A DNA stretch of 64,000 nucleotides, from contig OZ245046.1 in the NCBI GenBank assembly GCA_965224245.1, positions 1,888,001 through 1,952,000 on the forward strand. Direction: 5' to 3'. Within the stretch, counting starts at the first letter, position 1, and each line of letters starts with the position of its first letter. The notes under the pieces are model-generated. The model worked only from the letters and a program-made list of their open reading frames with translations. It made no database searches and was not told the origin of the DNA. This DNA comes from Candidatus Eiseniibacteriota bacterium. GTDB taxonomy: Bacteria > Eisenbacteria > RBG-16-71-46 > CAZAMP01. A program made the position numbers and the translations under genes. Positions 40,511 to 53,627 of this stretch are shown in pieces.

Positions 40511-41668
40511 TCACCGGGGGAGTCGAACGAGACGCTCGACGCGTCGGCGATCACCGACGTCGACGACCGTGAAGTACGTGCCCGGTGGCGCGTCACGACC
40601 GTGCTCGTCGAGACCGTCCCACGACATGTGAGCCAGACCGCCCTCGACCGGTCCGTCGAACAGCGACCGGACGCGCCGGCCGGCGACGTCGACGATCGTG
40701 ACCCGCATCGGGCCCTCCGCTCCGGTATGGACGAGGACCGTGGCCCGCGGACGAAACGGATTGGGCATCACCGAGAGCGTGATCCTCTCGGGCCGTGCCG
40801 CGTCCGGGACCGAGACGGTGCCGGCGACCCACTGGCTCACCCAGACGTCGTAGCCCCCGAGCCCGCCCGGCCGGTCGGACGTGAAGTAGAGGGTGAGGCC
40901 GTCCGGGGAAAGCACCGGACTGGCATCGAGATAGCCCGGATGACCGACGCCGCCGGGGACGGGGACCGGATCGCCGAACTCCCCGCCGCCGATCGCGTAG
41001 GCGACCGCGACGTCCCCGTCGACGCACAGGAACATCGAGTCGCCACCGGCCGCGACGAACGGCATGTAAGCGTGCGCGGAGGTGTTGAACGTCAGCGCTA
41101 CCGGCGCCTGCCAGACGCCGCCGACGCGCGTGGCGGTCCAGACGTCGTGACCGCCGGCCCCTCCGGCGCGGTCGAAGGCGGAGAAGACGATGGTATCGGC
41201 TCCGGACGCGCGCCCACCCCACTCGTCGGCCCCGGAGTCGATCGGGGTCCCGAGCGGTGCGTCCGCGATCCAGGAGCCGCCCCCGTCCGGGCTGGCCGTG
41301 CGCAGGTTGAACCCGTGGGTCGTGTACATCAGGACGCCCGACGGCGACAGGTCCGGCGCGTACTCGCGGAGCGGGGTGTTGACCGAGGGCCCGAGGTTCG
41401 TCGGCTCGCTCCAGACACCGTCGGTCCAGTCGGACCGGTAGAGATCGCGATCGCCGTGGCCGCCGGGACGATCGGAGTCGAAGACGAGCACGAGACCGTC
41501 GGCGCTCAACGCGAGGCCGAGCTCGTCGCCCGGGGAGTTGATCGGCGCGCCGAGGTTCACGGCCGGACCCCAGTCGGCGGCCGCCGGCTGAACCGTCGCG
41601 ACCGCGGCGAGGAGCACCGCGAGGGTGGAACGACGAGCTAGATCGGGGTGTGAGCGGGAGATACGCAT
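40511..41668 (-). CDS. Secreted PD40/TolB-like repeat protein with C-terminal FlgD-Ig domain
   Basis: NLGAPINS, SDRPGGHGDRDLY, SDRPGGLGGYDVW; PNPF...DVAGRRVRSL...WDG...PGTYF. Confidence 0.85.
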   Translation of the reverse strand: MRISRSHPDLARRSTLAVLLAAVATVQPAAADWGPAVNLGAPINSPGDELGLALSADGLVLVFDSDRPGGHGDRDLYRSDWTDGVWSEPTNLGPSVNTPLREYAPDLSPSGVLMYTTHGFNLRTASPDGGGSWIADAPLGTPIDSGADEWGGRASGADTIVFSAFDRAGGAGGHDVWTATRVGGVWQAPVALTFNTSAHAYMPFVAAGGDSMFLCVDGDVAVAYAIGGGEFGDPVPVPGGVGHPGYLDASPVLSPDGLTLYFTSDRPGGLGGYDVWVSQWVAGTVSVPDAARPERITLSVMPNPFRPRATVLVHTGAEGPMRVTIVDVAGRRVRSLFDGPVEGGLAHMSWDGLDEHGRDAPPGTYFTVVDVGDRRRVERLVRLPR

Positions 41669-41833
41669 CCGGGGGGTTCCTCGGGTGTGGAGCGCGGCGC
41701 CGAGCCGCAGAATGTCGTGGGCCGCCGGGCTGGTCGGCACCGTCGAGTATAGCACCGCCGGGGGTCCGGCGCGGTGGACGGAGACCCCCTCCGAGGGCGG
41801 GCCGAAACGGGCAAGTGACCATCAGAGCGTTAG

Positions 41834-41862
41834 TTGACGGTTTGAGGGGCCCGTGGTAGACT
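41834..41862 (+). promoter_or_regulatory. sigma70-type promoter of the qhp-like operon
   Basis: TTGACG-N17-TAGACT with TG extension; AGGAG RBS at 41901, 7 nt before GTG 41913. Confidence 0.65.
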
Positions 41863-41912
41863 CCGCGGGTTCCATGTCGTGGGTCGACACAATCATCGCC
41901 AGGAGCGGGCCT

Positions 41913-43370
41913 GTGGCCGTCGCCTCGGTGCGTGCGAAGGCACGTGCGCTCAGCGTCAACGACTTTCATCTCTTCACCGAGGACGCTCATTCGCACGTGC
42001 TCGTCGTGCCCACGTCCGCGCTCTTCCGGGTCGACCCCGAGGGCCGGCGCATCCTCTCCGCGCTGGCCGACCAGCGTCGAGCCCCGTTCGATCTGGACGC
42101 CTTCCTCGCCCATCCGTCGGTGGACGTGCCGTCCGCGGATGCCGACGCGCTCGTGGAGTCCCTGATCGCCATGGGCGTCCTGACGCACCCCGAGGCCCGC
42201 GGCTCCGACCCCGGCATCCTGAAGGACGACCTCCTGCGTTTCACGACGCCGCCGGTGGGCTCGGTCACGGCGCTGGTGTCGAAGGACTGCAATCTCAAGT
42301 GCGGCTACTGCTACGCCGACCAGGGCCGCTTCGGCCAGTCCGAGGGCGGCGAGATGGACTTCGAGACCGCCAAACGGTTCATGGACATCCTCATCGCCGA
42401 GTCCGGAAACCTCCCCCAGATCCGATATCAGTTCCTGGGAGGCGAGCCGCTGTTGAACGCGAAGCTGATGCGCCGGATCATCGAGTACGGCCGGTCGGAG
42501 GCCGCGCGCATCGGCAAGCGCATCAGCTTCGGCATGACCACCAACGCGACGTTCCTGACGCCGGAGATCATCGGCTACTTCGTCGAGCACGACGTGACGT
42601 GCACGATCAGCATCGACGGTCCCGAGCACGTCAACGATCTGATCCGGGTCAATCACGCCGACAAGGGGTCGTACCAGCGGATCATGCGCGCGGTGGCGCC
42701 GCTTCTGGCGGTGCAGGAGACGCGCGCGCGGGTCACGGTCACCAAGCACTGCCTCGACATGGAGATGATCGTGGATCACCTCCTCGGCGAGGGGTTCAGC
42801 GAGGTCGGCCTGACCCCGGTCAACTCGACCGATCGGCGCTACGCGCTCGACGACGCCGATCGCGAGCGGCTGCTCGACGAGTTCCGCCGGCTGACACGCC
42901 GCTACGTGCGAGAGGCCCGGGAGGGCCGCCGGTTCGGGTTCGCGAACCTCAACGAGCTCCTCAAGCAGATCCACGAGGGACGGAGCCAGACACACCCGTG
43001 CGGCGCCGGCATCAGCATGTTCGCGACCGATGCGAACGGCACGATCTACCCGTGCCACCGCTTTCCGGGCCGCGAGGAGTACGCGATGGGCCACGTCGAC
43101 AGGGGCGTGGATCGCGAGAAGCAGGCCGCCTGGCTGGCGCAGGTCCACGTCCACAACCGGTCGGCCTGCAAGAGCTGCTGGGCGCGCTACATCTGCTCGG
43201 GAGGCTGCTACTACCTCTCGGCGATCGAATACGGAGACGTGTCGCAGACGTTCACACCGATATGTGATCATCTGCGCCAGTGGTATCAGATGGGTTTGGC
43301 TGCGTACGCCGACATCGTCGAGACCTGCCCGGAGCATCTGTCCCGGATGGGTCTCGCGTTGGAAGCCTGA
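41913..43370 (+). CDS. RRE-containing radical SAM/SPASM peptide maturase (QhpD/PeaB-like thioether-forming enzyme)
   Basis: N-terminal PqqD-like RRE; CNLKCGYC; GGEPLL; SPASM CGAG...YPCH...CKSCWARYICSGGC...C; directly upstream of the QhpC-like peptide. Confidence 0.9.
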   Translation: MAVASVRAKARALSVNDFHLFTEDAHSHVLVVPTSALFRVDPEGRRILSALADQRRAPFDLDAFLAHPSVDVPSADADALVESLIAMGVLTHPEARGSDPGILKDDLLRFTTPPVGSVTALVSKDCNLKCGYCYADQGRFGQSEGGEMDFETAKRFMDILIAESGNLPQIRYQFLGGEPLLNAKLMRRIIEYGRSEAARIGKRISFGMTTNATFLTPEIIGYFVEHDVTCTISIDGPEHVNDLIRVNHADKGSYQRIMRAVAPLLAVQETRARVTVTKHCLDMEMIVDHLLGEGFSEVGLTPVNSTDRRYALDDADRERLLDEFRRLTRRYVREAREGRRFGFANLNELLKQIHEGRSQTHPCGAGISMFATDANGTIYPCHRFPGREEYAMGHVDRGVDREKQAAWLAQVHVHNRSACKSCWARYICSGGCYYLSAIEYGDVSQTFTPICDHLRQWYQMGLAAYADIVETCPEHLSRMGLALEA

Positions 43371-43402
43371 CACCGCGAGCACGCGGGCGCGAAGGGGGAC
43401 GC

Positions 43403-43696
43403 TTGAAGCATTTCAAACCGATCAACAAGAAGAGCCGCGAGGCGGTCGCCGAGGGCGCGCCGGATGCGTTCGGCCACGCATGTGCCGCATGTTGCGCGTC
43501 GTTCGCTCCGGGATGGGAGGTCGGCCCGGCCGGCGACCTCGATCCGTGCCCGTGGCAGAACGACCTGCATCTCTGCTGGGTCACGTGCTTCTGGAACTAC
43601 CAGATTCCCGACGACTCGGCGTACTCGTCCTGGATGGACAGCTGCGGCAGCGTGGCCGTGGACTGGACGACGCTCTGCGTGGTGCCGGACGTCTAG
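43403..43696 (+). CDS. QhpC-like (QHNDH gamma subunit-like) Cys/Trp-rich precursor peptide, 97 aa
   Basis: TTG start after GAAGGGGG; leader MKHFKPINKK; core CCASFAPGWEV...CPWQNDLHLCWVTCFWNYQIPD...DWTTL matches the QhpC pattern CxxSFDPGWEV...C...DLYGCxxxCWWxxQVxD...DWxxL. Confidence 0.85.
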   Translation: MKHFKPINKKSREAVAEGAPDAFGHACAACCASFAPGWEVGPAGDLDPCPWQNDLHLCWVTCFWNYQIPDDSAYSSWMDSCGSVAVDWTTLCVVPDV

Positions 43697-43825
43697 AGCC
43701 GCGCACCGGCAAAGGACCGCATCTGACGTGAACGACAACCGCAGGCTCGCGATCTTCGCGTTCGGCGCCGAGCGCGCTCCGGGGATGGCGACCACTTTCA
43801 TCGAGCCGACGGGAGGCATGATCGC

Positions 43826-44800
43826 ATGAAGCGAGTCATCCTGAGCGTTGCCGTAGCCGCCCTGGCCGTGACGTCGGCCGACGCGGCACGCGTGTACGTG
43901 ACGAGCAATCAGGTCAAGATCATCGACGACGTCGCCGGCGACGTCGTGGGCACGATCGATCTCGGGAAGTCCTACGTCCGGGACATGGTCTTCTCCGCGG
44001 ACGGGTCCACCGCGTACGTGGCCCACACCCGCGGCGTGGCGGTCGTGGACGTCGCGACGTCGGCCGTGACCGCCAACTGGTCGGACTGGACCGTGAGCGA
44101 CCTCGCGCTGGACGACGCCGGCGGGACGCTGAGCACGCTCGAGCACAAGGCGGGCTCGGGGTACCGCGTCGTCACGTACGACGTGTCGACCGGCGACACC
44201 GTCCGGAGCTACGCCGTCGACAACAAGGCGCTCGACCTGACCGCGCCACCGGCCGGCGGACGCGTGTTCACGACGAACCTGCACCGCGGCGTGGTCACGA
44301 GCTACGACCGGCTGACCGGAGAGGCCGGGTCCACGCTCGACGTCGCGCCCTCGGCCACGCCGGACGAGCTCGGGACGTACATCATCAAGTCGCTGATCTC
44401 CCCCGACGGCGGCACGATCTACGTCGTGCTCAACGGCGAGCGGGCCGGCATCACGACGATCTCGGCGACCACCGGCGAGACGACCGGTCAGATCCTCCTC
44501 GGGCACCCCGCGTACGTTCGCGACGCCGTCCTGTCCCCCGACGGCACGCGCATGTACATCTCGGCGCTCGACCACCTGTCGGTGGTGGATCTCGGGACGG
44601 GCACCGAGCTGGCGTGGGTCGACCTCGAGGTCACGCACCAGGGCATCGCGGTGTCGCCCGACGGCTCCCGCGTGTACCTCGTGAACCCGGTCTACGACAC
44701 CAGCGGCAGCCTGGCCGTCGTCGACGCGCGGACGTTCGAGCTGGTGAAGCGCATCTCGGTGCCCGACATCAGCCCGTATCGCGTCGCGATCGTTCCGTAA
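43826..44800 (+). CDS. Secreted YVTN/YncE-type beta-propeller (QhpB position)
   Basis: Sec signal peptide; repeats FSADGSTAYV, ISPDGGTIYV, LSPDGTRMYI, VSPDGSRVYL. Confidence 0.8.
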   Translation: MKRVILSVAVAALAVTSADAARVYVTSNQVKIIDDVAGDVVGTIDLGKSYVRDMVFSADGSTAYVAHTRGVAVVDVATSAVTANWSDWTVSDLALDDAGGTLSTLEHKAGSGYRVVTYDVSTGDTVRSYAVDNKALDLTAPPAGGRVFTTNLHRGVVTSYDRLTGEAGSTLDVAPSATPDELGTYIIKSLISPDGGTIYVVLNGERAGITTISATTGETTGQILLGHPAYVRDAVLSPDGTRMYISALDHLSVVDLGTGTELAWVDLEVTHQGIAVSPDGSRVYLVNPVYDTSGSLAVVDARTFELVKRISVPDISPYRVAIVP

Positions 44801-44841
44801 CGAGGAGCGGCGCGGCGACGCGCGCGCTCGAGGCCATCGTC

Positions 44842-45852
44842 ATGGTCGTTGTCGTCAGCATCCTGGCCGCCCTCATCGCCGTCTGGCCGGCGAGGGCGGT
44901 CGATTTCTTTGCCGCGGGCGACGCGCTGTACGGCGTGGATCCCGTCGGCGCGTCCATCCTGTGTCGGTCCGAGCCGCTCCCGGCCACGGCCAGCGACGTC
45001 GAGGTCGACCCCCACGGGCGCTACGTGGCCGTGACCACCGCCGCGGGGCTCACACTCCACGACCTCGAGTGCGCGCCGATCGGCGTCCTCGAGCTGGGCG
45101 TTCTGGACTGCGTCGAGCTGTCCCCGGACGGCGAGACGATCTACGTCCTCGTGCACCCGGCCGCCCGCCGGCGCGACGTCGGCGGACAGCACCGGCTCCT
45201 GGCCATCCCCTTCGCCGAGCCGCGCGAGCCGGTGGAGGTGTGCCGGGTGGGCGCACTCAGCTACGACATGTTTCTCTCGACCGACGGGTCCACCCTCGTG
45301 ATCACGAACAACATCGGACGGGACGTGGACGTGGTCGACGTGGCCTCGGGCAGCGTACGAACCCTTACCATCGCCGCCGGGGCCGAGCCCGAGAACGAGC
45401 TGGCCGTTCTCAGGGCGGGGCTCTGGGATGGTGCACGCTTCCGCCTGGGCGAGAGCGCGCGCACGCGAAAGCTGATTCTCTGGGACATCGACGTCGCCTC
45501 GGGAACGATGACGAAGGCCGAGCAGCCCTGGCGGATGCATGCCCTCGGGCTGGAGCGGGTAGGTGACGTGCTGGTCGTGAACGGTCTGGACCGGATCGCC
45601 TGGGGCCCGTGGTCCTCGTCCGGACTCGACGAAGAGCGCGACGTGCTCCGGGACGTCACCGGCATCGCCGCGTTCTCGAGGGACGGGTCGTCTCCCGAGG
45701 CATACCTGATCGCGCCCGCCGCGGACGGCTCACACCTCATGCGGCTCCGCGGCGGCACCGTGGAGGAGGTGCTGACGCTCCCCGGCAAGGTCACCACACT
45801 GGTGAGCGCCCCGGGCGCGACGTCCCCCGCCGCGACGCCGGTCGAGCCGTGA
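44842..45852 (+). CDS. Second secreted beta-propeller protein
   Basis: Signal peptide ending PARA; VDPHGRYVAV, LSPDGETIYV, LSTDGSTLVI. Confidence 0.7.
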   Translation: MVVVVSILAALIAVWPARAVDFFAAGDALYGVDPVGASILCRSEPLPATASDVEVDPHGRYVAVTTAAGLTLHDLECAPIGVLELGVLDCVELSPDGETIYVLVHPAARRRDVGGQHRLLAIPFAEPREPVEVCRVGALSYDMFLSTDGSTLVITNNIGRDVDVVDVASGSVRTLTIAAGAEPENELAVLRAGLWDGARFRLGESARTRKLILWDIDVASGTMTKAEQPWRMHALGLERVGDVLVVNGLDRIAWGPWSSSGLDEERDVLRDVTGIAAFSRDGSSPEAYLIAPAADGSHLMRLRGGTVEEVLTLPGKVTTLVSAPGATSPAATPVEP

Positions 45853-47606
45853 CCCCGCCTCCTCCGACGCGAGGGGAGCTCCGCTGGCTGTTCGATCGCG
45901 TCCGGCGCTACCGCGGTCGGCTCGCGATCCTGATCGGCCTGTTCGCCGTCGGCGCGGCCCTCGGGCTCGTGTACCCCCTGGTGCTCCGGTTCCTGATCGA
46001 TCGCGTGTTCACCGACCGGGACGGCCGCCACCTCCTGCCCGCGCTGGGCGTGCTCCTGCTGCTGTCGCTGGTGCAGGTCGTGGTGACCCAGGTCAGCACC
46101 TACCGGTACACGCAGCTGGCCGGCCGCGTCGTCCTGGATCTCCGGATGCTGCTCTTCCGGCACCTCGAACGTGTTCCGCTCGAGTTCCATGCCGAGCGCC
46201 GCGCGGGTGACATCGCCTCGCGCATCGGGGGCGACATCGCCGAGGTGCAGCAGGCCGCCACCGGCTCGGTGATGGCGCTCGTGACGTCGGTCCTGACGCT
46301 CCTGGCCACCGTGGGCGTGCTCGTGTATCTCGACCCGGTGCTGTTTGCGCTGTCGCTAGCGCTCGTCCCGTTCTCGTGGCTGATCGCCCGACGGTTCGCC
46401 GATCCCGTCCAGGACGCGTCCCGAGAGATCCGCGAGGCGAGCGCCGATCTGGGCTCGACGCTCCTCGACTCGATCGTCGGCCAGCACTTCATCCGGGCGC
46501 ACGGGCTCGAGACCGGCGCCGCCCGGCGGTTCTTCGGAGACGGACGCGAGATCTTCCGCTCTGTCCTCCGCGTCACGCGGCTGAACTGCTGGTCGAGCGG
46601 CCTGAGCAGCGTGCTCTCGACGGTCACCACGCTCTTCGTGCTCGGCATCGGCGGCTGGCGCGTCATCCGGGGCGACATCACGCTGGGGACGCTCCTGGCG
46701 TTCCAGATGTACGTCACCGGACTACACGGACCGATCCGGGGGTTCGTGTCGCTGTACCTCCGTCTCCAGCGCTCGGCCGTCTCCATCCGTCGCATCCGCG
46801 AGATCCTGGAGGTCCCGAGGCTCTCGCGGGGCGGATCGCGCGACGCCGACGACATCGCCGGCCACGTCACGTTCGAGCACGTCTCGTTCGCGTACGAGCC
46901 GGGAGCCGACGTGCTCACCGACGTCTCGTTCACCGTCGCGCCCGGCGAGCGCCTGGCCGTGGTCGGGCCGTCGGGCATCGGCAAGTCCACGCTCCTGGAT
47001 CTCGCGATCGGACTGCGCGTGCCCACCGCGGGACGCGTCCTCCTGGACGGCGTGCCGGTCGACGACTACCGACCCGACGCGCTTCGACGCCGGGTCGGCG
47101 TGGTCTCGCAGGACGTCTTCATGTTTCACGCCTCGATCGGCGAGAACCTCCGCCTGGTGGACCGCACGCTGACCGACGACGCGATCTGGGACGCGCTCGC
47201 GGCGGTCGAGCTGGCCGACTGGGTGCGAACGCTGCCCGAGAGTCTCGACACGTCGGTGGGCGAGCGGGCGCTCCGGCTCTCCGGTGGCCAGCGGCAACGG
47301 CTGGCGATGGCGCGCGCGCTCCTGCGTCGCCCCCGGGTGTTGATTCTCGACGAGGCCACGAGCGCGCTCGACGAGGTGACCGACGCGCTGATCCAGCGCG
47401 CGCTGGAGCCCGCCCTGGCGTCGGCGGCCACGATCGTGGCCAGCCACCGGAGATCGGTCATCGAGGCGGCCGATCGGGCGATCCTCCTCCACCAGGGACG
47501 CATCCACGCCACCGGCTCCCCGACCGACGTCCTGGCCCGGCTGGCACCGCGCGGCGGGCCGCCCCACGCCCCGTCGGCGCCGACGCGGACCCCGCTCACG
47601 CCATGA
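45849..47606 (+). CDS. ABC exporter, TMD+NBD fusion (QhpF-like)
   Basis: TM domain; GPSGIGKS, LSGGQRQR, ILDEATSALD; GTGA overlap. Confidence 0.92.
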   Translation: MTPPPPTRGELRWLFDRVRRYRGRLAILIGLFAVGAALGLVYPLVLRFLIDRVFTDRDGRHLLPALGVLLLLSLVQVVVTQVSTYRYTQLAGRVVLDLRMLLFRHLERVPLEFHAERRAGDIASRIGGDIAEVQQAATGSVMALVTSVLTLLATVGVLVYLDPVLFALSLALVPFSWLIARRFADPVQDASREIREASADLGSTLLDSIVGQHFIRAHGLETGAARRFFGDGREIFRSVLRVTRLNCWSSGLSSVLSTVTTLFVLGIGGWRVIRGDITLGTLLAFQMYVTGLHGPIRGFVSLYLRLQRSAVSIRRIREILEVPRLSRGGSRDADDIAGHVTFEHVSFAYEPGADVLTDVSFTVAPGERLAVVGPSGIGKSTLLDLAIGLRVPTAGRVLLDGVPVDDYRPDALRRRVGVVSQDVFMFHASIGENLRLVDRTLTDDAIWDALAAVELADWVRTLPESLDTSVGERALRLSGGQRQRLAMARALLRRPRVLILDEATSALDEVTDALIQRALEPALASAATIVASHRRSVIEAADRAILLHQGRIHATGSPTDVLARLAPRGGPPHAPSAPTRTPLTP

Positions 47607-48331
47607 TCGACCTTCGTGCCTCGCGCGGCTCTGGCATCCGCGTCGCCATCGTCGATTCCGGCGTCGTGGATCGGCACCCACACGTGGGCCCGGTCGCCGC
47701 GGGGTTCGGCGTCGACCCGACGCCCGACGGCCCGCGTCTCAGCGAGCGCTTCGACGACGTGGCCGGGCACGGTACCGCGTGTGCGGGAGTCGTGCGCTGG
47801 GGCGCCCCCGACGCCGCGATCGTAGCCGCGCGCGTGCTCGACGCACGCCTGACCGCGCGCGCCGACGCGCTGGAGCTCGCGCTCGACGCGCTCGTGGCGA
47901 GGCGGGTCGCCATCGTCAATCTCTCGCTGGGTGTCCCCGACCAGGAGGCGCGGGCGCGCCTGGCCCCCGTCACCGATCGCCTGACCGACGCCGGCGTGCT
48001 GATCGTCTCGGCGGTGCGTCCCGACGGTCGGCCGAGCTGGCCGTCCGACGACGCGCGAGCGTTCGACGTTGCCGCCGACCCCTCCCTCTCCCGCTGGCAG
48101 TATCGGGCCGGTGGACCCGGCGAGGCCACGTTCGTCGCCGCACCCACTCCTCGCCCCATTCCCGGCCGGCCGGAGACGGGCAACTACTCGGGCACGAGCT
48201 TCGCCGCGCCCCGGATCGCCGCGCTGCTCGCACGCGCGCTGGCGATCGACCCCACGTTGACGCGTGATACGCTGATCGACGTCCTGATCGCCAACGCACC
48301 GCACTTCGATCACACGAGGGCCTCGTCATGA
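47603..48331 (+). CDS. Small cytoplasmic subtilisin-like (S8) peptidase (QhpE-like)
   Basis: Triad motifs VAIVDSG, GHGTAC, SGTSFAAP; VNLSLG; no signal or propeptide; ATGA overlap. Confidence 0.88.
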   Translation: MIDLRASRGSGIRVAIVDSGVVDRHPHVGPVAAGFGVDPTPDGPRLSERFDDVAGHGTACAGVVRWGAPDAAIVAARVLDARLTARADALELALDALVARRVAIVNLSLGVPDQEARARLAPVTDRLTDAGVLIVSAVRPDGRPSWPSDDARAFDVAADPSLSRWQYRAGGPGEATFVAAPTPRPIPGRPETGNYSGTSFAAPRIAALLARALAIDPTLTRDTLIDVLIANAPHFDHTRASS

Positions 48332-49917
48332 CGTCGCGAGACGGCCGCGCGCGCAGGCTGCGCATCGGCTTCTTCCAGTACGAGCTCTCGCACCCGAACA
48401 ACGCCCCCCACGTGGGCATGTGCCTGCTCCTGGCCGACCTGCGTCGCGCGGGACACGAGGTCGACGCCGCCCTAGTGCACGCGCAGGCCGTCGACCTCTT
48501 GATCGATGCCATCCGCGATCGCGCGTACGACTTCGTCGCGTTCGACGCGATCTTCACCGTGCCGGTCCTCGACCGGGTGAAGGCCGCGTGCCCGGACGTC
48601 CCCATCCTGGTCGGCGGGAACAATGCGCTGGCGCTGATGCTGCTCTCGCGCGCGGACTTCGCGATCGTCGGCCCCGCGCGTTCGGCGATGCTCCGGTTCG
48701 TCGAGGGCGTCGCGTCGGAGACCCTCCCGGCCGGCGTACCGAACCTGTTCGTCCGCCTTCCGGACGGCCGCGTGGACCACTCCGGCGTTCACGCCGACTG
48801 GGCCGTGCACGGGGAGCTGGCCGACTACGCGCCCGATCTGGACTGGGGGTATCTGGGTCCGTCCCGCGCGCCCGGATCCAACACCCGCTTCGCGAGCGTC
48901 GTCCCCGAGTGGGGCTGCGCGTTCCAGAACGACTCGCTGACGGGACCGGCGTTCGATGCGCTGGAGCGGGGCGGCGTCAGCGACGTCGTGTCGTCTCTAC
49001 CCCTGACCGACGCGGCGCGGCGGGCCGTGCAGCCCTACGCCTCCAACACGCGCGGATGCTCGTTCTGCGCGTTTCGGTACCAGCCGTACACGATCGATCG
49101 GGTCACGACCACCATCTCGCGCGTGATCGATCAGATGACGTTTCTGTCCACGCGATACGGCGTGACCGAGTTCTCCATCCAGAGCGAGAACCCGTTTCGC
49201 TTCCTCGAGCCGCTGATCACGGCGCTCTCGGAATCCACGCTCAGGGTGGACAAGCTCCTGATCCGCACGTTCCCGGCCATCCTCGCCCGCAACGCGGACG
49301 TGGTCCGCCAGGCCCTCTCGCATGCGCTCGACCGGGGCATCCGAGTTCGCCTGCAGCAGCTCGGGTTCGAGAACTTCTCGCAGCCCGAGCTGGATCGGCT
49401 GGGCAAGGGCATCTCGGTGGAAGAGAACGTGGCCGCCGCCCGTCTCCTGACCGAGCTGTCGGACGCACTCGGCGACGGCGTCGAGCTGTTCGGCGGCCAC
49501 GGGTTCATCCTGTTCACGCCGTGGACGCGTCCCTCGGACATCGTGCAGAACGTCCGCACCGTGGCGAACGACGCCCCGTTTCTCGCCGACTCCTTGACGC
49601 CCGCGTCACGGCTCTGCTTCTACGATCCCTTCAACCCGATCTTTCGGCTGGCCGAGCGCGAGGGCCTGGTCGTGCGCGTCCCGCACGACTACACCCTCGA
49701 CTTCCGGTACGCCGATCCCGACACCCGCCGGATGCTGAAGCTGGCCGCGGCGCTCGAGGGACACCTGGTCCGGCACGGAGCCGAGGCCGGCTCGTGGCTG
49801 TCGACCACGGTGCTCCGCGAGACCGCATCGCTGTTCGCGGGGTCGGACACAACCCCCCGAGATCCGGAAGCGCTCTTCCGGACGGCCGAGGCCCGCGTCA
49901 GGAGCGCCATCGCCTAG
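48328..49917 (+). CDS. Cobalamin-binding radical SAM protein with split cluster motif
   Basis: N-terminal B12-binding-like fold (LRRAGHEV, PILVGG, ADFAIVG, VPNL); WGC-x46-CSFC; GFENFSQPELDRLGKG; FILFTPWT. Confidence 0.75.
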   Translation: MTSRDGRARRLRIGFFQYELSHPNNAPHVGMCLLLADLRRAGHEVDAALVHAQAVDLLIDAIRDRAYDFVAFDAIFTVPVLDRVKAACPDVPILVGGNNALALMLLSRADFAIVGPARSAMLRFVEGVASETLPAGVPNLFVRLPDGRVDHSGVHADWAVHGELADYAPDLDWGYLGPSRAPGSNTRFASVVPEWGCAFQNDSLTGPAFDALERGGVSDVVSSLPLTDAARRAVQPYASNTRGCSFCAFRYQPYTIDRVTTTISRVIDQMTFLSTRYGVTEFSIQSENPFRFLEPLITALSESTLRVDKLLIRTFPAILARNADVVRQALSHALDRGIRVRLQQLGFENFSQPELDRLGKGISVEENVAAARLLTELSDALGDGVELFGGHGFILFTPWTRPSDIVQNVRTVANDAPFLADSLTPASRLCFYDPFNPIFRLAEREGLVVRVPHDYTLDFRYADPDTRRMLKLAAALEGHLVRHGAEAGSWLSTTVLRETASLFAGSDTTPRDPEALFRTAEARVRSAIA

Positions 49918-49993
49918 CACCCGTGTGGATCGCACACGCCTGACCGAGCACTCGCACGACGCTACCGATCATGACGACGCCGCACGTGGACCG

Positions 49994-51898
49994 CTAGCGT
50001 GATCCCCATCGGTCGGCGTCCAGACCGTTCTCGGCACGTCGGAGTCGCACGAGCTCGCCCTCCATCGCGTCGAGCGGGGGCCAGGGGCTCAGGAGATAGC
50101 CGTGCGGCCGCCCGCGCGCGAGGAACCGCTCCGCCAGACGAACGGCCGGCGCGGACCGCGGTCCCTCGGTGAGCCGCACGAGGTTGTAGGCCGCGATCGG
50201 AAACCCGGGGTCGGCGGCCATCGCCTCGCGGAAGTGCCGCTCGGCGGCGTCCCGATCGCCGCGAAACACCGCGATGGTGCCCAGCCCGCACGACACCTCT
50301 GCCCCGGGGGCCCCGACGCGTCCGGCGGCGCGAAACCCGTCGGCCGCCTCGTCGAGCTCGCCGCGCTCGAGGCGCGTGATCGCATGGAAGTGCCGGAGTC
50401 GCGCGTCCTCGGGGCGCCGGGACAGCCCGGCGGCGACGTCGGCCAGGGCCGCGTCGACGAGGCCGACCCGGAGGAGGTGACCCGCCCGCTCGAGGTAGGC
50501 CAGCGCCGTCGCTTCGCCGCGCTCGGCGTCCGAGGTGTAGGCGGTGAGCCCCGGGAACATGCGCTCGATCGGCCAGCGCTCGACCGCGCGAGAGAGCGTG
50601 CGCCGCGCGGACGTCCGCATCAGTGCGATCCGCTCCGGGGTCAGCGCGTTGCCGGGATGACGCCGCACCTCGGTGAGGGCGAGATCGAGCACGGTCACCG
50701 GGCCGCGCGCGGCCAGCTCCATCCACATGCCGTAGTCCTGGGCCCGCGTCAGGGACTCGTCGTACGGGGCATCGCCCAGCGCCCGGAGGTGCTCGGTGCG
50801 CACCATGACCGTGGGCCCCAGGAAATGCGAGCCCCCCAGGAGCAGCCGTAGCGTCTGACCGGGATCGAAGTTCACGACCGGTCGCCACTCGAGGAGATCC
50901 CCGGTGGGCCCGATCGCGTAGTGGTGCGTCGCGCCGAAGACGGCGTCCGGATGTGCGGCCATGTGCGCCGCTTGCAGCTCGAGCTTGCGCGGCAGAAAGC
51001 GATCGTCGTCGTCGAGCCAGGCCACGAGCTCGGTCTTCACGTGCCGCAGCGCCTCGTTCATCGCCCCGGCCTGTCCGCGACGCTCGATCTCGATCAGCGT
51101 GATCGCCTCGCCGAACGGGTGCGCGATCTCGCGCGTGACGGGTGCGCTCCCGTCGGACACCACGATCACGGCGGCCGCCCGTGCGGTCTGCCCGAGCGCG
51201 CTCCGGATGGACTGGGCCAGCCACGGCGAGCGTCCGAGCGTCGGGATCACGACGGTGACCGGAACCCGATCGGCGTCCACGTCGACGTGTACGACGCCAC
51301 TCGCGGTCGCCGCATCCGCACGCCCCACGTCCGCGTGGCCCGCGCCGTCGACGTCGGTGCCGGCGTCCGGCTCGTCCGCCGCGGACGCCTCCACCCGCAC
51401 GAGGTAGCGCCCCACCTCCCCGATCGGCACCGGATACGCGAGACGGGCCAGCGGCGTGTAGTCCACGAGGACCGGCGTCGGCGATGGATGTCGTCCCGGG
51501 ATCACGTGATCGATCCGGCGCTCGCCGCGCCCGACGACGAGCACGACGCCGCCGGGAACCACGTGCTCGAGCACGTCGGCGGCGCGGAGATCCCCCCACG
51601 CCCCGTCCGCATCGAGAACGATCGTGTCCCAGACGCCGTCCAGCGTGCGATCGGCGCCGTGTGTGACGTAGTCGGCCACCCCCAGCTCCGCGGCACGACG
51701 CAGCAGATGCAGGCGGAGGACGGGATCGGCCACGCCGTGCATCACGCTCGGTACGCGCTCCCAGAGCGCCTCCGGGATGCCGTCGCACGGGACGCCGAGC
51801 ACGAGCGTGTCGCCGGACGCCAGGGCCGCGATGCGCGCGGCGAGCCGGCGCTGGCGCGGGACCGCTCCCTCGTGAAAGCCGCCGGGCCCGCTCAGCAT
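49994..51898 (-). CDS. Family 2 glycosyltransferase with C-terminal TPR region
   Basis: VTVVIPT, SALGQT, VSDGS, WLDDDD, QDYGMW; TPR-like helices. Confidence 0.85.
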   Translation of the reverse strand: MLSGPGGFHEGAVPRQRRLAARIAALASGDTLVLGVPCDGIPEALWERVPSVMHGVADPVLRLHLLRRAAELGVADYVTHGADRTLDGVWDTIVLDADGAWGDLRAADVLEHVVPGGVVLVVGRGERRIDHVIPGRHPSPTPVLVDYTPLARLAYPVPIGEVGRYLVRVEASAADEPDAGTDVDGAGHADVGRADAATASGVVHVDVDADRVPVTVVIPTLGRSPWLAQSIRSALGQTARAAAVIVVSDGSAPVTREIAHPFGEAITLIEIERRGQAGAMNEALRHVKTELVAWLDDDDRFLPRKLELQAAHMAAHPDAVFGATHHYAIGPTGDLLEWRPVVNFDPGQTLRLLLGGSHFLGPTVMVRTEHLRALGDAPYDESLTRAQDYGMWMELAARGPVTVLDLALTEVRRHPGNALTPERIALMRTSARRTLSRAVERWPIERMFPGLTAYTSDAERGEATALAYLERAGHLLRVGLVDAALADVAAGLSRRPEDARLRHFHAITRLERGELDEAADGFRAAGRVGAPGAEVSCGLGTIAVFRGDRDAAERHFREAMAADPGFPIAAYNLVRLTEGPRSAPAVRLAERFLARGRPHGYLLSPWPPLDAMEGELVRLRRAENGLDADRWGSR

Positions 51899-51917
51899 CG
51901 GAGCCGCTCCGGCCGGC

Positions 51918-53480
51918 TCACGACGCGGGGCTCCAGAAACGCGCGGGTCGGATCGGTCCTCCGAAGCGCGGACTCTCCAGCAACTCGGCGTAGCGCTCGA
52001 CCATGCGCTCGCTCTCGCCCGGCACGCGGAGCCCGGGCAGATGCTCCATCGTCCGGAACAGCTCGGGCGTCACGCGATAGGCGAGGCGCTCGCGCTGGCG
52101 GAGCCGGAGCTTCAGCGTGGCCTCGACGCGTGCGTCGGCGGGAAGCGCATCGCTCTCGACACTGATCGCACCGGCGTCGATGGGCGCGTGCCAGCCCAGG
52201 GACAGCGCCTCGAAGTCACGCGGCGCCTCCATCCGGAGCCGGACGCCGTACGCCCCCGGATCGCGGAAGATCGCGGTCTCCGGAAACGCGACCACCGGGA
52301 GCACGTTCGTCATGACGCCTCGCTCGTTCAGCGCGGCGATCATCGCATCGGAGGCCGCGATCGTGTCGGGCGTCTCGCCGGGGAGTCCCACCATCAACGA
52401 CGACTGCAGGTGCGTCAGGCCGCGGGCCGCGAGCCGGTCGAATGCGGCCAGCAGCGCGTCGTCGGTGATGTCACGTCCCGCGCGGCGGCGCACGCGCTCG
52501 GCACCCGCCTCCACGCCGAGCCACACACGAAGGCGAGGGGTGCGGGCCGAGATGCGCGCCAGGGCATCCGCGGCGCGGTCGGTGATCATGCCCGGGTGAA
52601 CGTCCACGAGGACGGCGGCCGCGTCACCGTGGGCCTCGAGCGCGGCGGCCAGCGCCTCCAGCGGCCTGGGGCCGGAGAAGTGCTCGGGCAGGTACAGCGG
52701 CACCTTGCGGGCCAGCATGTCCGGTATCTGCTCGTCCAGCTGACGGGCGAGGGACTTCTGAAGCGCGGGAAACAGCCGCTCGGAGTTCAGTGAGCAAAAC
52801 GTGCACGGCTTGGGGCAGCGCCCGCGCATGAACGGCAGGCCGATGTAGCGACCTCGCCCGCGCGGCCACACGAGATCGGGGTCGAACGAGAGCGTGACCA
52901 CCTCGTCCGGCGGCGTGGGCGCCGCCGGGGTACCGTCGCCGACGAGCACACCGTCCCGATCGCGGCGCACGACCCCCGGAACCGACGAGACCCGATCGGC
53001 ATCCAGGCCGGCCAGGAGCGCCGGATACGCCGCGTCACCGTCGCCGATCACGATCGAGTCCACGGCCGGCACCGAGCGCAAAATGGGCTCGGCGAGGGCT
53101 CCGGCGTGAACGCCGCCGAGCGTGACGTGCACCGACGGATCGAGCTCCTTGATCCAGCCGGCCACCGCGAACGCACCGGCGCTGTGGTACGACCAGTGGC
53201 ACTGGATCCCGACCGCCCGCGGTGCCATCTCGTCCAGAACCCGTGCGAGAAGATGACGCCAACGATCTTCCCCCCAGCGACTTCGGGCCTCCATTCCCGA
53301 GATGGTGGCCGCCGCGTCGTGCAGCTGGACCAGCACCGGATCGTGCCCGTGACGGCGGCACGCCTCGGCGACGTACAGGAGCCCCATCGGGATGATGTCG
53401 GCCGTTCCGTGCCAGTCGCCCGGACTCTGCATCGGATACGGCGGTGGATGAATGAGGACGGGGTTCTTCACCGGTTCCAT
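51918..53480 (-). CDS. Cobalamin-dependent radical SAM protein
   Basis: LIHPP, PMGLLYVA, LGGVHA, VDSIVIGDGD, RGRCPKPCTFCS, GVEAG, MVGLPGET. Confidence 0.85.
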   Translation of the reverse strand: MEPVKNPVLIHPPPYPMQSPGDWHGTADIIPMGLLYVAEACRRHGHDPVLVQLHDAAATISGMEARSRWGEDRWRHLLARVLDEMAPRAVGIQCHWSYHSAGAFAVAGWIKELDPSVHVTLGGVHAGALAEPILRSVPAVDSIVIGDGDAAYPALLAGLDADRVSSVPGVVRRDRDGVLVGDGTPAAPTPPDEVVTLSFDPDLVWPRGRGRYIGLPFMRGRCPKPCTFCSLNSERLFPALQKSLARQLDEQIPDMLARKVPLYLPEHFSGPRPLEALAAALEAHGDAAAVLVDVHPGMITDRAADALARISARTPRLRVWLGVEAGAERVRRRAGRDITDDALLAAFDRLAARGLTHLQSSLMVGLPGETPDTIAASDAMIAALNERGVMTNVLPVVAFPETAIFRDPGAYGVRLRMEAPRDFEALSLGWHAPIDAGAISVESDALPADARVEATLKLRLRQRERLAYRVTPELFRTMEHLPGLRVPGESERMVERYAELLESPRFGGPIRPARFWSPAS

Positions 53481-53627
53481 CCGAGGGAGGGCGGTCCGAT
53501 CGGCCACCGCGGGTGTGCGGGCGCCGCCGGACTATAGCACACGGCACGCGACGTACGCGGCTCCCCCGACGCCGACAAGTCGTTCTTCGTCAGTATGTTG
53601 GGCGGGACGGCGGCTCCACCGGCCCCA

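Follow-up and report, generated by a model that had tools for sequence, protein, structure and literature searches.

Quinohemoprotein amine dehydrogenase (QHNDH), LodA and GoxA are the only enzymes listed as containing cysteine tryptophylquinone (CTQ) in the review PMC11951088, which describes CTQ formation as O2- and flavin-dependent, with QhpG and QhpA as biogenesis factors and a possible role for the dihaem subunit. LodA and GoxA, which have the flavoprotein maturases LodB and GoxB, are haem-less and carry CTQ in a large single polypeptide, with no radical S-adenosylmethionine (SAM) enzyme, thioether knot, propeller or exporter. QHNDH of Paracoccus denitrificans and Pseudomonas putida is encoded by the qhpABCDEFG(R) genes (structures 1JJU and 1JMX; PMC7876137). 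The related operon described here occupies positions 41834 to 49917 of a 64,000-nucleotide stretch of DNA (the window), taken from contig OZ245046.1 (positions 1,888,001 to 1,952,000) of the Candidatus Eiseniibacteriota bacterium assembly GCA_965224245.1 (genome G000).

The window system shares with QHNDH a leader-bearing small subunit with the same CTQ Trp and Cys and the same three thioether pairs, a QhpD-type radical SAM/SPASM enzyme, a small subtilisin of the QhpE type, an ATP-binding cassette (ABC) exporter, a seven-bladed propeller and the gene order D-C-propeller. Like LodA and GoxA, it appears to be haem-less and of the CTQ type. Unlike QHNDH, it has neither a dihaem alpha subunit nor a QhpG that could be found in its own genome, its small subunit has four extra invariant Cys residues, a second, paralogous propeller is present, a cobalamin-type radical SAM enzyme co-occurs with it, and its hydroxylase is likely to be an iron-sulfur protein of the U32 family. 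Since QhpA and QhpG are absent and four family scores lie under their cut-offs, the operon resembles the QHNDH biogenesis pathway but is not a member of it as defined. It probably makes a periplasmic, haem-less quinoprotein related to QHNDH, matured in the way proposed below. Loci from Eisenbacteria, Acidobacteriota and Gemmatimonadota, and Myxococcota-like ones as well, show the D-C-propeller-exporter-protease order again.

The QhpC-like subunit and its cofactor site

The QhpC-like small subunit precursor, a protein of 97 residues, is encoded at 43403-43696 (plus strand), from a TTG start at 43403 behind the ribosome site GAAGGGGGA. It matches PF08992 with 35.8 bits (cut-off 25) and NF037958 with 48.9 bits (cut-off 50). 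Some 23-25 leader residues precede a core that contains the CTQ site and eight Cys residues. In a phmmer comparison with solved structures, only the QHNDH gamma chains 1jmx_G and 1jju_C match (E 1.8e-7 and 1.3e-6), and the alignment to these chains spans the whole length of the core. The thioether pairs of QHNDH, which we take to be Cys7/Glu16, Cys27/Asp33 and Cys41/Asp49 in the numbering of the structure papers, correspond to C30/E39, C49/D54 and C62/D70 here, and the CTQ pair, presumably Cys37/Trp43 in the same numbering, corresponds to C58/W64. The numbers of the cross-linked Cys7, Cys27 and Cys41 agree with PMC11951088.

All the CTQ and thioether residues are the same in 12 homologues from several lineages, whose identity to the window protein is 48-75%, and C27, C31, C81, C92, Asp47, Asp87 and Asp96 do not vary either. 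Altogether, 33 positions of the core of about 73 residues do not vary across the 12 sequences. The C81-x5-D87 and C92-x3-D96 spacings resemble those of the Cys-to-Asp pairs, and extra thioethers may possibly be formed there.

To judge from its sequence, the small protein is a quinoprotein subunit of the CTQ type and not a free ranthipeptide. The earlier note on this DNA had offered, as one of two alternatives, an exported and further-tailored ranthipeptide, that is, a peptide made by the ribosome and modified after translation (RiPP). On that reading, the propellers would serve in immunity, as receptors or as carriers. The maturase does match PapB (NF047865) as its second-best family after QhpD, with 301.2 bits, and exporters of the ABC type, leader proteases and class B radical SAM enzymes are all common in RiPP systems. 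However, the PapB score lies under both the cut-off of 340 and the QhpD score, a core with so many fixed positions is not that of a diversifying RiPP, and this core aligns at full length to solved QHNDH gamma chains. A propeller gene, moreover, follows the QhpC-like gene in all related loci. Because of the conserved core and this constant neighbour, the protein is better described as an enzyme subunit, and the ranthipeptide alternative is improbable.

The QhpC-like gene is present in seven of the 206 Eisenbacteria genomes (G000, G041, G038, G039, G010, G011 and G012). In other loci there are two to four paralogous QhpC-like genes per contig, some of them in tandem: three in L035, two each in L034, L036, L105 and L109, and four tandem copies with 10 Cys in L110. 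This suggests that there are families of related quinoprotein subunits.

Absence of the haem subunit and of QhpG

The best match to QhpA (TIGR03908) in the source genome has 23 bits, against a cut-off of 274. None of ten further variant-bearing genomes has a QhpA above the cut-off, which makes 0 of 11 in all; the genomes searched include some of 99% completeness and one that is a single chromosome of 4.58 Mb. None of the 22 open reading frames between 31 and 63 kb of the window contains a CXXCH motif, and family scans of the annotated window region found no flavin adenine dinucleotide (FAD) monooxygenase, in agreement with the earlier note, in which neither a multihaem c-type cytochrome nor an FAD monooxygenase was recognised in the window. 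No electron acceptor gene was found near the operon.

The best QhpG match (NF049967) in the source genome has 78.6 bits, against a cut-off of 240. The protein lies at C1:4460758, 2.5 Mb from the operon and beside a Ca/Na antiporter. It was rejected as a QhpG orthologue because of its low score, its unrelated neighbours and the lack of a BLAST match to the QhpG-like protein of G039; that it serves as an analogue of the hydroxylase is nevertheless conceivable. The whole-genome search thus gave no qhpA or qhpG orthologue that would complete a canonical QHNDH.

It is very improbable that the system is a normal QHNDH in which qhpA and qhpG escaped notice through incomplete assembly. The genome of 6.94 Mb is 97.39% complete in 27 contigs, so that a little sequence is missing, but the window is on a contig of 6.45 Mb, no variant genome searched has a QhpA above the cut-off, and the QhpC subfamily has its own eight-Cys signature.

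In Acidobacteriota, a protein of 374 residues is encoded upstream of the radical SAM gene (L035:8592-9716). It matches PF09100, domain IV of the QHNDH alpha subunit, with 26.8 bits and has no haem motif. The same type of protein is found in L105, L109, L110 and L103 and is absent from the window. It looks like a haem-less remnant of the alpha subunit. The only match to it in the source genome, at C1:2283959, is weak and unrelated, and was rejected.

The U32 module

The operon had been described in the earlier note as lacking the Trp oxygenase. This is correct for QhpG, but another part of the genome encodes a likely O2-independent substitute, a U32 protein of 705 residues in which a UbiV-like and a UbiU-like half are fused. 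It is found at G000:C1:37295-39412 and is 41% identical to the product of a U32 gene in G041, the closest relative, whose cluster has the same gene order as the window. In G041, this U32 ‘peptidase’ gene is preceded by a gene for a protein of 320 residues, and the two lie between propeller 2 and the exporter. The pair is also inside the cluster in three Acidobacteriota loci, in the Myxococcota-like loci L077, L078 and L080 (G211, G213 and G214), in L101 and in the Gemmatimonadota locus L105. Since orthologues lie inside the cluster in three other lineages, the U32 protein is likely to be the Trp hydroxylase, replacing QhpG in a manner independent of O2. At the U32-module position of the other clusters, L079 and L081 have a gene for a Cys-rich secreted protein of 235-249 residues.

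In the G041, G000 and Acidobacteriota genomes, where the U32 module is present, QhpG scores are 26.6, 78.6 and 67-75 bits, respectively, and a QhpG-like gene is absent. In G039 (230.8 bits), G012 (193.4 bits) and G010 (153 bits), a QhpG-like gene is present and the U32 module is absent. The QhpG-like gene adjoins the cluster in G039; its orthologues in G012 and G010 are unlinked and 38-39% identical to it. Among the 206 Eisenbacteria genomes, the U32 fusion has strong matches only in G000 and G041 (248.8 + 136.6 bits for G041), so that it is no housekeeping gene in this phylum. The scores of 43-58 bits in four other genomes belong to unrelated larger proteins.

U32 proteins are proposed to hydroxylate aromatic rings with prephenate as the oxygen donor and are O2-independent counterparts of the flavin hydroxylases in ubiquinone synthesis (PMC10990095). 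The cluster ligands are arranged as CXnCX12CX3C in UbiV and CX6CX16CX38C in UbiU (PMC6747719). As in UbiU and UbiV, the protein has two U32-type halves with four conserved Cys residues each, in UbiV- and UbiU-like spacing. The N-terminal half has a UbiV-type CXnCX17CX3C arrangement (Cys 51, 217, 235 and 239), and the C-terminal half has CX6CX12C (512, 519 and 532) followed by a CGLC pair (588 and 591). The proposed substrate is in both cases an aromatic ring that is the target of a flavin monooxygenase in the aerobic route. Unlike UbiU and UbiV, the halves are fused in the source genome, and the score to the UbiU equivalog NF047963 is 86.1 bits (cut-off 440), with 112.6 bits to PF01136. The proposed substrate differs as well, being a Trp side-chain in a protein; to our knowledge, no U32 member is known to act on such a substrate.

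The U32 gene of the source genome is in a co-oriented run (C1:34077-40098, L059) with genes for a lipoprotein with a lactonase-type seven-bladed propeller and for three small proteins without a family. No homologues of these neighbouring proteins were found in related Qhp-like loci.

In a rival reading, the small protein is cross-linked by the radical SAM enzyme and exported without a quinone, as a thioether-knotted structural or binding partner of the propellers or a redox-inert relic of QHNDH, and the cobalamin-type enzyme would serve in methylation or other tailoring. The source genome has no QhpG orthologue, its U32 gene is unlinked, no electron acceptor gene is near the operon and propeller 1 matches the QHNDH beta family weakly, all of which would fit such a protein. 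However, although the lineages share only about 45-55% identity overall, the CTQ Trp, the Cys paired with it and the Asp residues at its flanks never vary, and candidate hydroxylases travel with the cluster, a QhpG-like protein in G039 and the U32 module in other genomes. We therefore regard a protein without a quinone as unlikely, if less so than the ranthipeptide.

The cobalamin-type radical SAM enzyme

The last gene of the operon (48328-49917, plus strand) encodes a putative cobalamin-type (class B) radical SAM enzyme of 529 residues. By sequence, only its B12 domain passes a family cut-off (PF02310, 33.4 bits, cut-off 32.1). A profile of the family gives nothing significant against the sequences of the PDB, TsrM being found at E 0.093. 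The canonical CX3CX2C motif is absent; instead, there is a split arrangement, C197-X46-C244-X2-C247, in which C244 and C247 are kept without exception, and C197 almost without exception, across 14 sequences. The predicted structure has a mean predicted local distance difference test (pLDDT) value of 91.7 and a predicted template modelling score (pTM) of 0.90. Its top Foldseek matches are all cobalamin radical SAM enzymes, OxsB (E 4e-15), TsrM, TokK, MgmA and CysS, with E values from 4e-15 to 1e-9 and TMq of 0.46-0.58. Like these enzymes, it is predicted to have an N-terminal Rossmann-type B12 domain followed by a radical SAM barrel. Unlike them, it places the first cluster Cys 46 residues before the CX2C, and it is only 12-15% identical to them.

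The family is rare: 34 proteins reach E≤1e-10 among 8000 candidates scored from 5.8 billion clusters. In the 206 Eisenbacteria genomes, matches of at least 271 bits are found in seven, which are exactly the seven that carry the QhpC-like gene; three others have matches of only 132-165 bits. The B12-like gene adjoins the cluster in three Acidobacteriota loci. Five Myxococcota-like genomes were chosen because their B12-like copy has no Qhp gene within 10 kb, and all five carry a QhpC-like gene elsewhere, with 128-139 bits to the subfamily profile and in a D-C-propeller-(U32)-exporter-protease cluster. The earlier note had called this enzyme an addition to a Qhp-derived operon. The enzyme is indeed there, but its co-occurrence makes it a fixed partner of one QhpC subfamily rather than an accessory of this locus only.

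The surroundings of the CTQ Cys differ with the presence of the enzyme. In 16 of 16 B12-positive genomes the sequence is LC[WY]x(T or AG)C[FY]W, and in 8 of 9 B12-negative genomes it is ACHPC[FY]W or CH-x5-C. This gives a lead, from sequence comparison, that the enzyme may act on or near the aromatic residue beside the CTQ Cys. There it might methylate, form another cross-link or assist in making the Cys-Trp bond. Another rule, which would tie the additional first Cys (C27) to the B12 enzyme, fails, since the Myxococcota-like B12-positive genomes do not have that Cys.

In a search of full-text literature that did not extend to supplements and one ranthipeptide survey, no QhpC system was found that is QhpA-less, U32-linked or B12-linked, and no paper searched contains both ‘tryptophylquinone’ and ‘U32’. 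The link of the B12 enzyme to the QhpC subfamily is new here.

Maturase, protease and exporter

The first gene of the operon (41874-43370, plus strand, with the start at ATG 41874 or GTG 41853) encodes a QhpD-like radical SAM/SPASM protein, the predicted thioether maturase, with an N-terminal leader-binding region. It matches TIGR03906 (QhpD) with 387.1 bits (cut-off 453) over model positions 2-460 of 467, and the SPASM domain TIGR04085 with 63.4 bits. Its cluster motif CX3CX2C is formed by C139, C143 and C146. The QhpF-equivalent exporter (45849-47606, plus strand) is a fused permease and ATPase with no peptidase domain (ABC_membrane 137.9 bits, ABC_tran 114.2 bits). It is followed by the gene for a small cytoplasmic subtilisin-like S8 protease of 242 residues (47603-48331, plus strand), a putative QhpE-like leader peptidase, for which NF049966 (QhpE) is the best family match with 128.9 bits (cut-off 165) and in which the catalytic motifs DSG, HGT and GTS are present (D18, H56 and S199). 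Among family models, the radical SAM enzyme, the small protein and the protease each match the QHNDH counterpart best.

A second QhpD-like radical SAM/SPASM gene is located outside the window at G000:C1:2436428-2437582 (L061:6377-8050, minus strand). Its product matches TIGR03906 with 337 bits over model positions 81-461 and has a long unrelated N-terminus. The neighbouring genes encode an LpoB-like lipoprotein and proteins without known function, and no QhpC-like or Cys-rich small open reading frame adjoins it. In two Myxococcota-like clusters, genes for outer-membrane channels of the FadL/TodX type follow the protease gene (L079:14349-16370 and L081:4926-6473), which hints at a hydrophobic substrate.

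The two propellers

Both propellers have a visible signal peptide. Propeller 1 (43826-44800, plus strand) is a secreted seven-bladed beta-propeller of the YVTN type at the QhpB position. Among PDB structures, YVTN propellers match it best, and the beta chains of QHNDH (1jmx_B and 1jju_B) and the heavy chains of methylamine dehydrogenase match more weakly. Its score to the QH_beta family TIGR03907 is 40 bits (cut-off 223), and only the fold class and the position of the gene identify it with QhpB.

Propeller 2 (44842-45852, plus strand) is a rare, second secreted seven-bladed propeller. It has no family match in the scans and 30 matches at E≤1e-3 among 1.84 billion representatives. Sequence profiles identify it as a clear paralogue of propeller 1, with an hhalign probability of 99.7 and E 3.7e-27 between alignments without common rows. 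The model of propeller 2 has a pLDDT of 90.3 and matches seven-bladed propellers, with 1jmx_B at rank 12; the ESM Atlas gives only leads under 0.9, to TolB/DPP-IV-like propellers.

In a three-chain prediction of propeller 2 with propeller 1 and QhpC, propeller 2 as the partner scores 0.35, compared with 0.02 for the highest-scoring of three controls; at least 32% of contacts are common to the runs, and the partner pLDDT is at least 81. Of 80 solved complexes, 58 reach the pass mark used, as do 2 of 110 mismatched pairs, and among the passes, scores of 0.60 or less belong to 7 of the 80 solved complexes and to both mismatched pairs. The alignments for the fold and the complex of propeller 2 include rows P0052 and P0063, which are also in the propeller 1 alignment. 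The prediction lends weak support to a binding of propeller 2 to the propeller 1/QhpC pair. Because propeller 2 resembles QhpB, the pass is possibly just an echo of the solved QHNDH beta-gamma complex.

Proposed maturation pathway

In the cytoplasm, the QhpD-like radical SAM enzyme would bind the leader of the 97-residue QhpC-like protein and install the three Cys-to-Asp/Glu thioethers, with Cys81/Asp87 and Cys92/Asp96 as possible further sites. The U32 iron-sulfur protein would then hydroxylate Trp64, the CTQ precursor, without O2, and linkage to Cys58 would give CTQ. The cobalamin-type radical SAM enzyme would add a modification that only this QhpC subfamily needs, for which the aromatic residue after the CTQ Cys is the lead. 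After the QhpE-like protease has cut off the leader, the ABC exporter would move the knotted subunit to the periplasm, where its partner would be the QhpB-like propeller and perhaps, in this lineage, propeller 2 as well. The resulting dehydrogenase would pass its electrons to a separate acceptor and not to a built-in dihaem subunit.

In its most far-reaching form, the proposal is that of a third route to a tryptophylquinone, in which CTQ is made with neither O2 nor haem by a U32 hydroxylase acting on a protein Trp and a split-motif cobalamin radical SAM enzyme that modifies the residue beside the CTQ Cys or closes the Cys-Trp link, to give a gamma-beta(-beta′) dehydrogenase that uses a free carrier. 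We consider this extended version possible, though doubtful.

The other alternative of the earlier note, a haem-independent quinoprotein, is favoured by the data, since the CTQ and thioether residues are kept and there is no QhpA. The different cofactor chemistry that the note attached to it is not needed; the site looks like that of CTQ, and it is the maturation that differs.

Several points weigh against a haem-less quinoprotein matured in this way. A conserved set of Trp and Cys residues alone is no proof that a quinone is formed, and four NCBIfam scores are under the curated cut-offs (387/453, 48.9/50, 128.9/165 and 40/223 bits). The related genomes are not independent samples. In the source genome, 1.85 Mb separate the U32 gene from the operon, and none of the genes around it is Qhp-related. 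Myxococcota-like genomes also hold several QhpG-family matches of 83-154 bits, with 83-135 bits given for those that have the U32 module, so that the alternation between this module and QhpG is blurred in the group. The source genome encodes two haem-copper oxidases of the COX1 family, so that an O2-independent route is not forced on the organism. At E≤1e-20, none of nine genomes with independently found QhpC-like genes (G215 to G223) has the B12-like gene (the positive control, G224, gives 494 bits); being missing from these nine QhpA-less genomes, the enzyme is not required by all haem-less variants. The rule of an aromatic residue after the CTQ Cys is post hoc, comes from few lineages and misses G220 (2.3 Mb). 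Finally, propeller 2 is present in the Eisenbacteria and Acidobacteriota clusters and absent from the Myxococcota-like clusters, which makes it an extra of particular lineages that cannot replace the alpha subunit in general.

Operon organization and neighbouring genes

The window has a G+C content of 70%, and in frame-specific G+C at third codon positions a single run of co-oriented genes, from 41.8 to 49.9 kb, stands out. All seven genes of the run named in the earlier note are present, and the further features of its layout are also borne out. Ahead of the radical SAM gene, at 41834-41862 (plus strand), is a site that resembles a promoter of the sigma-70 type, TTGACG-17-TAGACT, in which TG precedes the -10 element. 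It is identified by consensus match only and is the sole such site in 41500-50300, compared with 0.2 expected from shuffles. The genes overlap by GTGA at 45849 and by ATGA at 47603 and 48328. The two propeller genes do not overlap, the TAA of the first being separated by a 41-nucleotide gap from ATG 44842.

The upstream gene is divergent (40511-41821, minus strand) and encodes a secreted protein with PD40 and FlgD-Ig domains, whose membership in the system is uncertain. Such a gene adjoins the radical SAM gene also in the Eisenbacteria loci L014/L044, L015/L039 and L032. The FlgD-Ig domain closes several unrelated secreted proteins in these genomes and is possibly a sorting tag.

Downstream, a convergent pair (49994-53531, minus strand) encodes a GT2-TPR glycosyltransferase and a second, canonical B12 radical SAM enzyme. 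Its membership is likewise uncertain, and the pair may belong to the system. It adjoins the B12-like gene in L032, L039 and L044, and in L040, which is labelled Planctomycetia, GT2 and the B12 radical SAM gene are co-directional with the B12-like gene, in the order ABC, S8, B12-like, GT2, B12 radical SAM.

Biological significance

A variant that has neither the haem subunit nor the flavoenzyme and yet keeps the cofactor site offers a test of O2-free formation of a protein-derived quinone. It also offers a test of whether U32 proteins can hydroxylate the side-chain of a protein. For a rare family of class B radical SAM enzymes, it provides a defined candidate substrate, a protein of 97 residues, with which the chemistry of the family becomes testable.

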